Source: Vezdaea acicularis (Eukaryota). Taken from it: a stretch of 55,293 nt of DNA. A program made the translations under genes and the position numbers. Shown here piece after piece: positions 5,383 to 17,283 of the stretch; positions within the stretch are counted from its first letter, which is position 1; the number at the start of each line of letters is the position of its first letter. The notes beneath the pieces are model-generated. The model was not told the origin of the DNA and did no database searches. It was given only the letters and a program-made list of their open reading frames with translations. The stretch spans positions 62,001 to 117,293 of the forward strand of contig JAPEUI010000050.1 in assembly GCA_026025075.1 (NCBI GenBank), in the 5' to 3' direction.

Positions 5383-7431
5383 TTACGAGCTACACGAACA
5401 TTGCATTGCTCGACCTAATCTCGGGACATCACCACACCATCTCTCTTCTTCTTCAGCATTGCCCCCCCAGCTTTCTCGAAATGGATCTAAAGCCATTCTC
5501 ATGATTCTTGGCAGGATTTCCCTGTCATTTTCATGCTCGACTTTTTGAATTATTTCGTCCAGTATCCATCCTCTAGGAATGAACTGATGATGATAGCATT
5601 AGAAGACCACTGTACATATATCTTTGGCAGGATAATTGACGCTTACCTTTGGGTTGACTGCTTTCATTGCCGCTTCACGCTCATGATCGCCCTCCGTACC
5701 CCAGTCCTCTAGCAGACGGGTATACCATATTTCAAGCCAGTCTCCTATGCGATTTCGTGCTGATTCTTCAGTATTACCAATCCCAGTCACTCCTTCATGA
5801 TGGAATAACCGGCTTGCGGAGTTTGATCTTTTTTCTTCCGTGTCCATATCGGAAAGCTTCACGCTGCTTAGCTTTCGGAAAAAGTGGTTGAAGTCTAATT
5901 CCAGCGCTTCCATAGTATCTAGGAGCTCACTGAATAGGACCTCAAAATCTTGTTTCTTTTGCGATTTAAGACCTAAGCGACTCGTCATTAGACGCTTGTA
6001 TTCTCCCAAGAATACTGCTTGATATTCTTCTCCAGCTTTCTCAATTAGTGTCTCAGCCCGCTTAATGAGTACAGGCGCAAATTCTTCTTGGACGCCTTTG
6101 CTTTTGAATTCCTCTTCGTCACAATGTTCGCCTGCCCCAATGAGCTCTCCCAAACTTTCACCAAGCCTAACAAGATTCCACCAGATGACAGTCGGCTGAT
6201 TTCGATAGCTGTATCGAAGCATATGGTCATCATGATTGGGTGTGTAATTCGGATCAAAGTTATCAAGGAAAGCAAATGGGCCATAATCAATGCTTAGACC
6301 ATATACAGAAGTATTGTCGGTATTCAATACACCATTGGTAAAGGCATATGCCTGCCATGCGGCAACAGTCTTCGCATTTCGCCGTACTATATCTCGATAT
6401 AACCGTGCGAATCGATTCTCGACCTCTTCATTCTCGCCCTCTATTGTGCTTGCCGAAACCCCAGTTCCATTATGAGCTGGAGCTACGTCTCTCACATCTC
6501 CAGAGGGAAGCCTCGAAGGTAATGTTTCCCACCCTCCAAAGACTTCTTCTGCAATATATGTTGCTAGCTTTCGAGTTAATGTGCGCTCGCCGCGTGCGCG
6601 GAGGAGATCGAAGGTCCCTATTCGAAGCCATGATTGAGCGAAGCGGGCGACGATTGCTCCAGGCTCTGTTCGTTCACGACGAACCTTCTCCTTCGGCAAT
6701 AGTGTAAGAGCAAGCGCTCGCGTGGTAGGTATGTGAAGAGCGTTCAGGGCTGCCATGACTGCAATCAGTATACAGAATTTGAGCGGTTGTGTAAAGATTT
6801 TACCTTCTGATACAATGAATTCCCTTATACTACTCCTAAGCACCGCTTTACCATCTGCAAATCTGGAATATGGTGTTTTCCCCGCACCTTTTAACTGAAG
6901 CTCGTATCTCCTTTTGGTAGAAGGGTTCGTTGACTCAAATAGAGATATTGCCCTACCATCCCCAAGTTGACCGGCCCATGAACCGAATTGCCACCCGCCA
7001 TAACATTGCGCCCAGGGATACGCTCCATCCTTCTGCCCCTCCTCCCAGCCCAATATCTTGTTGCCAGACATCAGCTGTTGAAACTCCTCCGTCTTCTCCT
7101 CTCCTTCCCTTAACCCAATGTCCCTCATTGCTGCAGAACTCACGGCTAATAACTCTGGGCTCTCCGTAGCCTCTGGCCTGACATACGTGAACAGCGCGCC
7201 CTTTACTAATCGCGGGCCAAGGGTCTCTCGAGGTGCCTTGTGAGAATCTACAGGAGTAGGGAAGGCTGGATCTGGAGGTAGCTTCGAAGTGAAAACGCTC
7301 GTCTTCGGCAACTCTGCGAGCGATACACCTGCGAATGGGGCGCCATTGGCGCCGTTCGTGAGATGATTCGCCATCTGCGGAAGACGGCTGAGAAGCTTCG
7401 TGGCTCGACGCGGGATTCTGGCACCTCTCAT
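5383..7431 (-). CDS. FMP40: Protein adenylyltransferase SelO/Fmp40 (YdiU/UPF0061), Cys form, multi-exon
   Basis: Motifs YGGWQFGSWAGQLGDGRA, LKGAGKTPYSRFADGKAVLRSSIRE, NGVLNTDN and DYGPF. Spliced last exon ends ...MQCSCSS* (TAA 5383-5385). Confidence 0.95.
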
Positions 7432-12361: not shown

Positions 12362-15300
12362 ATGCTGAATAGCATAGAACAGAGCACAGTGATGTCGCAA
12401 GGAAAGATCGAAGATTGCGTCACATGGTCTGTTGAGGACTTGGGGGAGAGCTTCGGCGAGAAGGTGCCAGCATTGACAGATTTCGCTTCATCCGAACAGA
12501 AGACCGATTACTCAAGATGGAGGTTACTAGACGAGGCAGGGCGCCAGACCTGGGTATATCTTGCGACAGACGACGAAGTTAAGAAGTGGCCCCAAAGTAT
12601 AGCGGATAAATTTCATCTAGGTCTCCCAACGGTGAGAACCCTTGTCTTGCGCGCAATTACTTTGCTGAATGTACCTTCAAGGGCCTCCCGAAGCTGTCCA
12701 CCCCGACCACGCCATTAGAGTCCGCCCTAAATGGCCTTACATATTTTTCCCATCTACAACTCCCACCAGGGAACTGGGCCTGCGAGTATGGTGGTCCAAT
12801 GTTCCTCCTCCCCGGGCTGATCATATCGTCGTATATCACGAATACGCCCATACCGGAGACGCATGCAATTGAGATAAAAAATTATCTATTCGCACGACAA
12901 AACGAAGATGGGGGTTGGGGCTTACATATTGAAGGTCCAAGTACAGTATTCGGGACATCTATGAACTACGTCGTCATGCGCTTGCTGGGTGAAGATGCGG
13001 ACCATCCACAGATGGTGAGGGCAAGGGGGACGCTGCATAAACTTGGGGGCGCTGTGTATGGACCGCATTGGTCAAAGTTCTGGCTGAGCGTGCTGGGTGT
13101 TGCGGAATGGGATATCGTTAATCCAATGCCACCAGAATTATGGTAAGGTTATGAACACTTCGCACGAAGAGCGCATGTCCTTCTCGCACTGTCTCACCAT
13201 GTATCTGCTAACACTCTGTTCAAGGCTTCTTCCAGACTGGGTCCCAATAGCACCGTGGCGATGGTGGATCCACATGCGCCAGGTTTTCCTACCAATGTCC
13301 TTCATCTATTCACATCGTTTCACCTTTCCCTTGACCCCTTTGACACGTCAGCTCCGTGACGAGCTCTACACTCAGCCCTACGACTCTATCGACTTTCTGG
13401 CACATCGAAACAGCATCTCGTGGACAGATAACTTCCATCCGAAAACCTGGGTTCTGAACCTCGTCAACTGGATATTGGTCAACATCTGGAACCCTTATCT
13501 GAGAACGAAAGCTATAGCGAAGAGAGGGGAAGACTGGACCTGGTGGCTCATTCAGCAAGAGGACGAAAATACCGACTTCTCTAATCTTGGACCTGTTAAT
13601 GCGCCTATAAATCTACTTTGTTGCTACATCAAAGACGGAGAAGGGAGCTACAGCGTAAAAAGACACCGCGAGCGCTTGTACGACTTCCTTTGGATGAAGA
13701 ACGAAGGAATGCTCATGAATGGCACGAATGGCGTACAAACATGGGATACCGCTTTCCTGGTCCAAGCAGTAGTCGATGCTGGATTTGCTACGGACCCGAA
13801 GTGGAAGGATATGCTCTTGGGCGCCCTTCGCTTCCTTGAGGACCAGCAGATCCGTGCTGACTGCCCCGAGCAAGCCAAGTGCTATCGGCAAAGGCGTAAG
13901 GGAGCTTGGGCATTCAGCACCAAAGATCAAGGGTATACAGTCAGCGACTGTACATCTGAAGCGATGAAAGCAGTGATGATGCTCCAACGTCTCCCTGGTT
14001 TCCCGACACTTGTCTCTGATCAGCGCCTTGAAGACGCAATCGATACGCTCCTTACGATGCAGAATCCCTCGGGAGGGTTTGCGTCGTATGAGCCTACGCG
14101 AGGTTCTAAGTACCTCGAATGGCTCAATGCAGCAGAAGTGTTCGGACGAATCATGATCGAGTACGATTACCCCGAATGCTCAACCGCAGTCGTCACTGCG
14201 CTCTCACTCTTTTCGAAGTACTATCCCAACTACCGGCGAGCGGAGATCGATAGGATCAAGTTGCGCGCAGTGGATTACATTCGCAGAGCGCAACGTCCAG
14301 ATGGGAGTTGGTACGGAAGCTGGGGCGTCTGCTTCACGTATGCCGGGATGTTCGCGATAGAGAGCTTGCGCAGTGTAGGTGAAACTTACGAGAATAGTGA
14401 GCGAGTAAGGAGAGCATGCGAGTTCTTCTTGGGGAAGCAAATGGAAGACGGCGGCTGGGGCGAGAGCTACAAGGTACTTCTCTTCCCCTACCGCGGCGTA
14501 ACGCATCGCATTCTGATAATGTCCCGCCTCGAATAGGCCTGCGAAACAGGCGTCTGGACCGATCACGAACAATCGCAGATCGTGAACACGGCATGGGTCT
14601 GCATTGCGCTCATGGAAGCAGAGTACCCGCATAAAGCGCCCATCGAGCGCGGCCTGAAGATGATCATGTTGCGACAGGCTGAGGACGGTAGCTGGCCACA
14701 AGGAGCCATCGAGGGGGTCTTCAACAAGAGCTGGTAAGTCGCATTTTCTTTACTTGTAACCCGACCGCTCCAGGCTGGCCCCAGAGATCTCAAGAATCGA
14801 TCTACAGAATAGACAATGCCTCGGAGAAGTCAACGAGTAGGGTTTGTTGGTGCCCGTCCGCCCACCATTGATCAGTTGGTTATCGGCATGCTCATCGCAG
14901 AGCGCGGCAGACACTCATAATCGGTGTCGACCAATCACACTTGGCCGACTTGCTCGTTTCTAGTAAGAATCCGATCGAAAATTTGCGGTTATAAGCAATG
15001 TCAGTTCTTCAGTCAGTACATTCGACCATAGGTATCGGAATACTGGGCATCCCGTCCGCTCTGCCATACATAAGCCGATAACCGACTGATTAGTAGTTGG
15101 GTGGGTGACCACCAGCGAATCCCAGTTGTTGAATGTTTTTGGCTTTTCTCTTTGGTCGTCATTTTTCATTGCCAATCTCATCTGGAAACCTCCAAACAGG
15201 ACCCTTGGCTTTTTTGGAGTGAGCACATCACTTGAGGACTGTCGTGAGATAATTCTTGGTCCTAGCAGAATCGTCGCTGGGTCGGGGACGAAGCGAGTTT

Positions 15301-15425
15301 TTTTGAGTAGGCGAGCTAACCGCGTGGAAAATAGCATGATCTCCTACCCGAACTATAAATTCATCTTCCCCATCAAGGCACTGGGCATGTTCGCAAGAAT
15401 ATGGGGAGAGGACGGTAGCTCATAA
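12362..15425 (+). CDS. ERG7: Lanosterol synthase (oxidosqualene cyclase), 5 exons; last intron 14734-15334
   Basis: Motifs [21 protein letters not shown] repeats ([31 protein letters not shown]), [10 protein letters not shown] and catalytic VSDCTSE. Splice TG|gtaagt...gctaac...atag|C joins NKSC to [17 protein letters not shown]. Confidence 0.97.
14830..14928 (-). pseudogene. Degenerate inverted (antisense) copy of the 5S rRNA sequence inside the ERG7 intron
   Basis: By hand alignment, 14830-14904 matches the reverse complement of 15057-15132 at 54/76 positions. This includes a 16/17 run (ATCAGTTGGTTATCGGC vs ATCAGTCGGTTATCGGC) and GCAGAGCG. A weaker match continues to about 14928. Confidence 0.7.
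14990..14994 (+). promoter_or_regulatory. TATA element about 28 bp upstream of the 5S rRNA gene
   Basis: TATAA at the position expected for dispersed filamentous-fungal 5S genes. Confidence 0.55.
15018..15136 (+). rRNA. 5S rRNA: 5S ribosomal RNA gene (dispersed copy), nested in the last intron of ERG7
   Basis: 119 nt, ACATTCGACCATAGG...CCCGTCCGCTC...TAGTAGTTGGGTGGGTGACCACCAGCGAATCCC...GTTGAATGT, matching Pezizomycotina 5S. Helix I (ACAUUCGAC/GUUGAAUGU) and helix II (GGUAUCGG/CCGAUAACC) pair. A T-run follows. Confidence 0.96.
15136..15140 (+). terminator. RNA polymerase III oligo-T terminator of the 5S gene
   Basis: TTTTT directly at the 5S 3' end, with further T-runs downstream. Confidence 0.75.
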
Positions 15426-15757
15426 GGGTACTTATGGCGGTTTCAAGGGATGTACGAGCGACGTGCATCTCATCCTCATAGGGACGCTGCCATGGAGAGC
15501 CTTCGACCGTGAGCACTTAAAGAATTATCAGTAAGACGAAGACAGGTGAAATGATTCAAGGCGACGTGATAGACTTAGAAGTTTTAGATATGCTTGGGCT
15601 TTCGAACACTAGCTATAGATCAGCCTCTTCGGCTCTTGCTAACTAGAAGACGCTTAATATCAAACTCCAGCATGTATGCTCACAAATCGGAGTCCATACT
15701 GAATCCTCCCTTACATCTTCTGAGCTCCCTGATCCCCTATCTGCGCCAATTGACTAT

Positions 15758-16999
15758 TTACTCTCCCCATCCCTTCGCCTCCATCCCGTCCGGGGGGCTG
15801 GTCTCCACCTTCCCCTTTCCCACATCCGCCCAGTTCGTACTCAGCGCCGTCCCGTTACTCTCCTGGAAGCTTTTCATCATCGCACGCCTTGTGTCCGGAT
15901 CTGCATCTTTGTATATCTTCTTGAAGAAAGCACTGGCCGGGTCGCCGCTCTCGTCGTCATCCTCGAGAGGGTTTGAGGCGGTTGGGGGAGCGTTAGGGTC
16001 AGATGTTTCTTGGGGTAAGGACGCTTCGAGCGGGAGGGTATCCCAGTTCTTGGGGCCTTTGCGGGAGGAGGTTGGGTAGGAGGGAGGCTTATCTAGGGAA
16101 GTTGTTGCTTGTGGAGTGGAGGTAGTGGAAGGAGCGGTGGTGATAATGGTAGAGTCAAAGGAGGAGGATTCGAGAGCGTGCCATTTCGTACCTGCTTGGC
16201 TCTTCTTGAGGACGATCTCGATCTTGGTAGAGAGCACTTTGCTTGTCGAGGCTGTAGGGTCGATAGGGTGCGCCAGAGGGGTGAGCGTAAAGTCGTAATC
16301 TGTACTTGTATTTGAGGGGAGGGGAAAGTTGACGCTGAGGGAGTTGGCTTGGATGTCAATGCTAGTCTTCTCCTTACTGACCCCTTTTACGAAGAGGGAG
16401 ATCACCACGTCGGTAGGGGTTTGGTACCATTCGTGTCGAACTTTCGTTGAGGCTGTGGCTGATGGTGTTTCCGAGGCTGTAGTAGTTGTGGTGTTCTTCT
16501 CAGCGACCTTTTCTATAGGCTTGTCATCCGGTATCTCCTTCACCTCCTTTGTATCAACTTCCATTTTCCCCTCCGTCGCCTCCTTCACCTTCCTCTCCCA
16601 AATCTCGAACCCTGATACACCCTTGATGCCCTGCGCGCCGTAGTTCTGATGAGCTACATCTCCAGGCTTCCAGCCCCCACCCATGCGTTTCACGAACTCG
16701 AAGACGGTCTTGGCTTCCCATATCTTGCCAGAGCCGAAGAGGGCGATTCCCCGTCGCATCTGGGCTTGGGCGATCAGCTCTTTGTTGCCGCGCTTGTGGG
16801 CCAGGACCACCGCATGCTCGGCGTCGGCAAGAGCAAGGTCGTGGGAAGGTGGTTTCAAGCGCTGATATGCGGTTGAGCGCTTAATGTAGTAGTCTACCGC
16901 AGTTGGTATTTGAGCAATAGCGGAGGTATAGAGCTCGATAGCTTTGGGATAGTCGGAGATGGAGATGGCAGCCGCGCCTTGCGATGCTAGGGTTGCCAT
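15758..16999 (-). CDS. SGT1: SGT1 Hsp90 co-chaperone (TPR-CS-SGS)
   Basis: N-terminal TPRs, CS domain (VRHEWYQT...SKVLSTKIEIVLKK) and SGS domain (YPTSSRKGPKNWD, FFKKIYKDADPDTRRAMMKSFQESNGTALSTNW). Confidence 0.96.
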   Translation of the reverse strand: MATLASQGAAAISISDYPKAIELYTSAIAQIPTAVDYYIKRSTAYQRLKPPSHDLALADAEHAVVLAHKRGNKELIAQAQMRRGIALFGSGKIWEAKTVFEFVKRMGGGWKPGDVAHQNYGAQGIKGVSGFEIWERKVKEATEGKMEVDTKEVKEIPDDKPIEKVAEKNTTTTTASETPSATASTKVRHEWYQTPTDVVISLFVKGVSKEKTSIDIQANSLSVNFPLPSNTSTDYDFTLTPLAHPIDPTASTSKVLSTKIEIVLKKSQAGTKWHALESSSFDSTIITTAPSTTSTPQATTSLDKPPSYPTSSRKGPKNWDTLPLEASLPQETSDPNAPPTASNPLEDDDESGDPASAFFKKIYKDADPDTRRAMMKSFQESNGTALSTNWADVGKGKVETSPPDGMEAKGWGE

Positions 17000-17283
17000 G
17001 GTGGGAAGGCTTCGAGAGATTCTGCGAAATGTAGGGAAATATAGGGGTCTTTCAGGTGGACAGATCCAAATTCAGAGGATCTACTGATCTGGCCCTAGAT
17101 ACATGGTGGTAACTTGGCTGGGAAGGTGTTTAGGCAGAAGCCAAAAACCTTAAGCCACGTTTGGCTTGAAGTTCGAGAAGGGCGGAACGACCCCGCCCCC
17201 ACCAAAGGAAAATTGTGGAACATTCTCCGCCCTGGCTTGACCATCCTATCATCGCACAGGTCGGAACCTCATGTCTGCACGCA

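Follow-up and report, generated by a model that had tools for sequence, protein, structure and literature searches.

A dispersed-type 5S rRNA gene, probably active, in the last intron of a predicted ERG7 gene of Vezdaea acicularis

Results

A stretch of 55,293 nucleotides (nt) from Vezdaea acicularis (assembly GCA_026025075.1, contig JAPEUI010000050.1, positions 62,001 to 117,293 of the forward strand; the whole stretch is called the window here and its first letter is position 1) carries a complete 5S ribosomal RNA (rRNA) gene inside the 601-nt last intron of a predicted ERG7-type gene. Both genes lie on the + strand and have the same sense, as a preliminary description of this DNA had stated. 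We consider it probable, at about 0.72, that this is an ordinary dispersed fungal 5S copy which was inserted into a pre-existing short ERG7 intron, is an active RNA polymerase III (Pol III) gene and is tolerated by its host in the sense orientation.

The whole window was scanned with Rfam covariance models, and the 5S rRNA family (RF00001) was the sole family found at its gathering score. The match at 15018-15137 on the + strand reached 77.9 bits against a gathering threshold of 38 bits (E 7.1e-15) and covered positions 1-120 of the 120 in the model with no truncation. The Infernal/Rfam scan therefore bears out the preliminary description of a full 5S gene in the ERG7 intron; the length given there was 119 nt and Rfam gives 120, a gap no larger than the margin to which the 3' end is known. 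Both the minimum free energy fold and the centroid fold contain a helix I of 9 base pairs, which closes the 5' and 3' ends, and two arms, together forming a three-helix junction. No transfer RNA (tRNA) gene was found in the window by ARAGORN, so the 5S gene stands without tRNA linkage. Matches to other RNA families in the host intron were below threshold and at chance level (IRES_APC 16.3 bits, sR34 14.8 and sR55 13.1), including the two to small nucleolar RNAs (snoRNAs), with 14.8 bits (E 9.1) and 13.1 bits (E 5.7). A 5S-derived short interspersed nuclear element, or a retroposed copy, was considered as well and rejected, the match being a complete 5S which ends at a T-run with no direct repeat bracketing it. 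The elements of the intron are the following.

14734 to 15334, + strand: ERG7 intron 4, 601 nt, phase 2, with a GTAAGT donor, GCTAAC at 15315-15320 and a TAG acceptor
14828 to 14916, - strand: decayed inverted 5S relic, 5S positions ~28-117, nhmmer E 1.1e-5, also detected as an inverted repeat
14990 to 14995, + strand: TATAAG, at -28 to -23 relative to 15018, read from the sequence
15018 to 15137, + strand: 5S rRNA gene, full-length match to RF00001 with a three-arm fold
15136 to 15140, + strand: run of five T, Pol III terminator-like, read from the sequence

The TATA motif at about -28 and the T5 terminator which the preliminary description had assigned to the gene are both present, as TATAAG at 14990-14995 and TTTTT at 15136-15140. 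Further runs of five to seven T are found in the intron downstream of this terminator, at ~15161, 15210 and 15299. Judged by these signals, the copy at 15018-15137 has what is expected of an active type 1 Pol III gene of the fungal kind, namely a TATA motif near -28 and a T-run downstream.

The frames of the host gene match the Pfam domains SQHop_cyclase_N (E 6.1e-24, 12610-13146) and SQHop_cyclase_C (E 1.4e-31), and the NCBIfam model TIGR01787 scores 402 bits on them, above its cut-off of 322.7. A second model, TIGR03463, scores 374.9 bits from one exon only, short of the 851 bits set as its cut-off for the whole protein. In PDB the host matches human lanosterol synthase best, and the predicted product is an oxidosqualene/lanosterol cyclase of the ERG7 type. 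If translation starts at 12362, the exons total 2268 nt, that is 755 codons and a stop. The exons and the remaining introns, all with boundaries read from the sequence, are given here.

12362 or 12392 to 12631, + strand: ERG7 exon 1, open frame with its start ATG at 12362 or 12392, followed by a GTGAGA donor at 12632
12632 to 12681, + strand: ERG7 intron 1, 50 nt
12682 to 13142, + strand: ERG7 exon 2, SQHop_cyclase_N
13143 to 13224, + strand: ERG7 intron 2, 82 nt, contains TGCTAAC
13225 to 14473, + strand: ERG7 exon 3, SQHop_cyclase_C and TIGR01787
14474 to 14536, + strand: ERG7 intron 3, 63 nt
14537 to 14733, + strand: ERG7 exon 4, matched to human lanosterol synthase (1w6k) over residues 636-699 with E 2.5e-13
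15335 to 15425, + strand: ERG7 exon 5, the last 30 codons and TAA; 15336-15422 aligns to 1w6k residues 702-725, E 0.069, which is weak when taken alone

The codon split by intron 4 (TG/C) and the ATG which follows it correspond to residues 700-701 of 1w6k, so that the junction neither loses nor gains a residue. Because the alignment to the human enzyme spans this junction free of gaps, the boundaries of intron 4, 14734-15334, are fixed by homology. Its splice signals are canonical, with GCTAAC placed 15 nt before the acceptor, and retention of the intron would lead to an immediate stop (TGG TAA) and to loss of the conserved last 30 residues. The exons on both sides are thus predicted to join into a conserved protein, with the 5S gene nested in a spliceosomal intron. 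The length of 601 nt given in the preliminary description for the last ERG7 intron is in accordance with the homology across the junction and with the GTAAGT, GCTAAC and TAG signals. As to the neighborhood, a gene on the - strand (15758-17071) is convergent with ERG7, the two stops being ~330 nt apart; by eye its product has a TPR/CS/SGS (SGT1-like) look, and it has no NCBIfam match.

Six DNA sequencing runs from three studies contain part of the stretch, and four of them, here called X1, X2, X5 and X6, were compared as DNA contigs. X1 and X2 are labelled as moss metagenome, X5 comes from a second study ('organism A') and X6 from a third. Contigs of X1 and X2 are near-identical to the window and enter the 5S gene from both sides, covering 14300-15033 with 7 differing letters and 15112-15600 and 15088-15346 with none. 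In X5 a contig of 11,457 letters covers 14300-15046 with 70 differing letters and another, of 14,815 letters, covers 15112-15546 with 55 differing letters and 3 gaps, while the pieces from X6 cover 14673-14973 (30 differing letters) and 15213-15546 (39 differing letters). Since the contigs of X5 and X6 cover the locus from both sides, these relatives, which are ~9-13% divergent at the DNA level, appear to share the whole layout of exon, long intron, 5S gene, intron and last exon. An assembly artefact was considered and rejected: the sequences on either side of the 5S are parts of a single gene, and in X1, X2, X5 and X6 independent contigs lead from unique sequence into the 5S at each of its ends. 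Contigs break within the 5S because it is repeated. Depth in X5 is ~720 over the 5S and 11.5 on the flanks, which is not to be read as a copy number. The last exon carries A>G at position 15359 in X2, X5 and X6, a synonymous change (AAA to AAG) in keeping with a coding role of this small exon in the relatives. Given the shared layout, the insertion predates the split from relatives ~10% divergent.

Beyond what the preliminary description mentions, the intron holds a second 5S sequence, the decayed relic on the opposite strand upstream of the intact copy, and the 5' ends of the two face each other ~100 nt apart. The relic is 71% identical to the intact 5S over 76 nt by blastn, and their local alignment scored 30.5, whereas none of 2000 shuffles scored above 17. 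Because its region is covered in X5 and X6, the relic predates the split from them too. It carries the same word in the 3' strand of helix II as the intact copy, which points to a local duplication in inverted orientation or to one subfamily shared by both. When the whole intron is folded as a single RNA its predicted energy is -204.3 kcal/mol, compared with -176.9 +/- 5.3 kcal/mol for shuffled sequences (z -5.1, none of 20 shuffles as good). In this predicted fold, a long imperfect hairpin of ~300 nt, the relic pairs with 5S positions ~40-115 and the 5S shape does not form.

Helix II (15030-15083) is also where the intronic copy departs from other 5S copies. Its 5' strand contains ATCGG and its 3' strand CCGAT, and in all four runs both strands differ from those of the 5S copies present at higher depth, which possibly belong to the same fungus and possibly to other fungi in the samples. 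At 15077-15080 the intronic 5S has GATA where the other copies in the runs have TCAG, and the loose contig ends of these other copies show a correspondingly different 5' strand. Both versions pair, and the difference is therefore read as a compensated variant and not as decay; several 5S sequence variants coexist within the same samples. The loose ends of the other copies in X1, X2 and X5 also have TATA-like words at an equal distance upstream. In the intronic copy both a near-identical strain and a relative ~10% divergent preserve the TATA word, with A in place of G at position 14995 in X1 and X5, which makes it TATAAA. From the signals at -28 and at the T5 run, the compensated helix II and the contrast between the intact copy and its decayed twin we infer that the + strand copy has been maintained and is transcribed independently by Pol III, the host intron still being spliced.

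Several observations weigh against a maintained and working gene. Only 29 of the 34 pairs of the RF00001 model are standard in this copy and five are non-standard (counted from the NC line), although the three-arm fold itself is recovered and in that respect agrees with the intact helices of the preliminary description. The energy of the 5S fold is unremarkable (z -1.26, 20 of 200 shuffles folding equally well), so its identification rests on the match to the model and not on thermodynamics. Among the contigs listed, none joins 15047-15087 to unique flanks, for they end within the repeat, and the central part of the gene thus depends on the assembly of the window; its two helix II strands do, however, match each other. 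As it differs from the copies at higher depth, the intronic 5S may also be a minor type. The difference at 15077-15080 and the five non-standard pairs would fit a silent copy, that is a 5S of intact appearance which is left untranscribed or whose product is not used, being young or silenced by chromatin and heading for the fate of the relic. A dead sister 5S does adjoin the intact one, and passage of RNA polymerase II (Pol II) could disturb the binding of Pol III factors. We nevertheless regard a silent copy as unlikely. The gene is complete and has both promoter-like signals and a terminator signal, its difference in helix II is compensated, and the arrangement has survived ~10% divergence of the flanks, with the + strand copy in the window far better preserved than the relic.

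To place the insertion in time, as the preliminary description had proposed, ERG7 orthologues were surveyed. A 408-residue ERG7 exon was used as query against metagenome contigs and gave 80 ERG7 loci with 50-77% amino acid identity; many of these are true orthologous loci, since the upstream neighbor is shared in 40 of the 80 and the downstream neighbor in 14. An nhmmer search with the 5S of the window found no 5S within ~4 kb flanks in any of the 80, while the same search on the window stretch, run as a control, yields both the intact 5S and the relic. No Rfam family was found in 16 representative loci picked from the 80. The last ERG7 exon was located by tblastn in 75 of the 80 loci, at 54-95% identity. 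Of these 75 assessable loci 56 carry an intron at the same codon, 50-119 nt in length (median 59) and of 38 distinct sequences, and 19 lack it. Inspected by eye, these 56 introns begin with GT in 52 cases and with GC in loci L054 and L055, two others (L050 and L051) are mis-anchored, and all 56 end in AG. For L054 and L055 the first letters of the last ERG7 intron (~5417-5473) would allow a GC-AG intron. Apart from a chance match of 21 nt in locus L043 (E 0.29), the intron flanks around the 5S find no counterpart elsewhere in the window or among the 80 loci; mobile or repeated flanks were accordingly rejected as an explanation, the sole other matches of the intron being to itself and to its own inverted relic.

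The survey thus places a 5S in none of the 80 distant loci, and the layout is found in the relatives ~9-13% divergent. With no 5S in 80 loci and an intron of 50-119 nt in 56 of 75, an old short intron has apparently been enlarged in a narrow lineage: the intron site appears to be old and normally short, and the 601-nt state peculiar to that lineage. Measured against the evolution of fungal ERG7, the insertion would be young. That the arrangement is confined to close relatives agrees better with an insertion which is recent and tolerated than with a conserved design for regulation.

Discussion

The history which we consider probable begins with a duplication or insertion at the DNA level, which would have put a 5S unit into a short ERG7 intron and extended it from ~50-120 nt to 601 nt. 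Pol III would transcribe the 5S alone, from the internal control region and the TATA motif at -28, and would end at the T5 run. Pol II would read through the 5S and the spliceosome would remove the whole 601-nt intron, which gives the conserved C-terminus. As both genes run in the same direction, the host would tolerate the 5S. The neighboring inverted copy was presumably not maintained and decayed.

It is also conceivable that the sense 5S and the antisense relic have been kept since they act on the host. A complex of Pol III factors could serve as a roadblock or brake which slows Pol II towards the 3' end of ERG7, just before the last exon, or the ~300-nt hairpin formed with the relic could affect splicing by shortening the effective intron, or could feed small RNAs; either would link the synthesis of sterols to the supply of ribosomes. 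The layout is indeed retained in at least two diverged relatives, and the predicted hairpin is more stable than any of the shuffled introns. A nested Pol III unit is moreover able to lower the expression of its host: for a MIR short interspersed nuclear element which lies antisense in the first intron of mammalian Polr3e, Pol III interference with the host has been shown (Yeganeh et al. 2017, PMC5358760, in the part of that paper on which we draw). In the same part of the paper, however, the intronic Pol III unit lowers host expression only when antisense, and in the sense orientation, which is that of the 5S gene here, there is 'no measurable effect' in a reporter. No result of the present analysis supports the view of the preliminary description that the placement implies interference or co-regulation of Pol II and Pol III. 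A neutral insertion would persist equally well over ~10% divergence, and such coupling is not a conserved design, because the 5S is absent from all 80 distant ERG7 loci. We consider an effect on the host very improbable; if it were true, the output of lanosterol synthase would be tied to Pol III activity and to the growth state.

Intron-encoded snoRNAs have no promoter or terminator of their own and are set free when the intron is trimmed. The preliminary description had suggested that 5S might also be released from the excised intron, and a mature 5S could in principle be trimmed from the spliced ERG7 intron in this manner, since it too is a small stable RNA gene located in an intron in the sense of the host. 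It differs from the snoRNAs in its own promoter-like and terminator signals, which make such release unlikely: the TATA motif at -28 and the T5 run are present as they are in other 5S copies of the same samples, and an intron-processed RNA of the snoRNA type was rejected on this ground. The predicted fold of the intron, which pairs 5S positions ~40-115 with the antisense relic and not in the 5S shape, also argues against it, and no precedent was found in the literature searched. We give this origin hardly any credence.

An ordinary dispersed 5S copy, inserted and tolerated, remains our preferred reading. If the 5S is active, the locus is a natural fungal test case of a sense type 1 Pol III gene which is read through by Pol II in a housekeeping gene. 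It also illustrates one route by which a short fungal intron may grow tenfold, namely capture of a 5S unit, here apparently as an inverted pair, and it is a warning for annotation that a long outlier intron may conceal an RNA gene. Literature searches, which covered few subscription journals, brought up no earlier description of a fungal 5S gene in an intron. The arrangement appears to be a lineage-restricted curiosity, with nothing pointing to a new mechanism.

In Neurospora the 5S genes form a dispersed and heterogeneous family. The present gene is like them in being a single 120-nt unit, with no tandem array and no linkage to ribosomal DNA or tRNA genes, and in having a TATA motif at -28 and a T-run; it differs in its location within the intron of a protein-coding gene and in its decayed inverted twin. 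The Neurospora genes reportedly require a TATA box together with three elements that are internal (Tyler 1987, as cited in PMC6204057). A TATA-like motif is placed near -28 in Neurospora 5S genes in the section of PMC6204057 that concerns us. By this analogy the layout of the intronic copy, with TATA near -28 and internal elements, matches that described for Neurospora.

As regards nesting, the Polr3e MIR is likewise a Pol III unit situated wholly inside a Pol II intron and retained across species, to judge from the portion of PMC5358760 used here. By the same portion, the MIR is antisense, has a type 2 promoter (A and B box) and has been shown experimentally to interfere, whereas the gene described here is a sense type 1 5S known from its sequence. 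Odd placement of dispersed fungal 5S genes has been described before: in Yarrowia lipolytica and its relatives dicistronic tRNA-5S genes, in which the 5S is fused 1-3 bp behind the tRNA, are co-transcribed by Pol III (PMC2566860 and PMC13130702, excerpts). As far as these excerpts go, the two cases are alike in a placement which possibly alters transcription and differ in that the window has no tRNA gene and the intronic 5S has its own upstream TATA. The locus is accordingly best described as adding one more case to two kinds already known, the dispersed 5S genes of fungi and the Pol III units which lie within Pol II introns.

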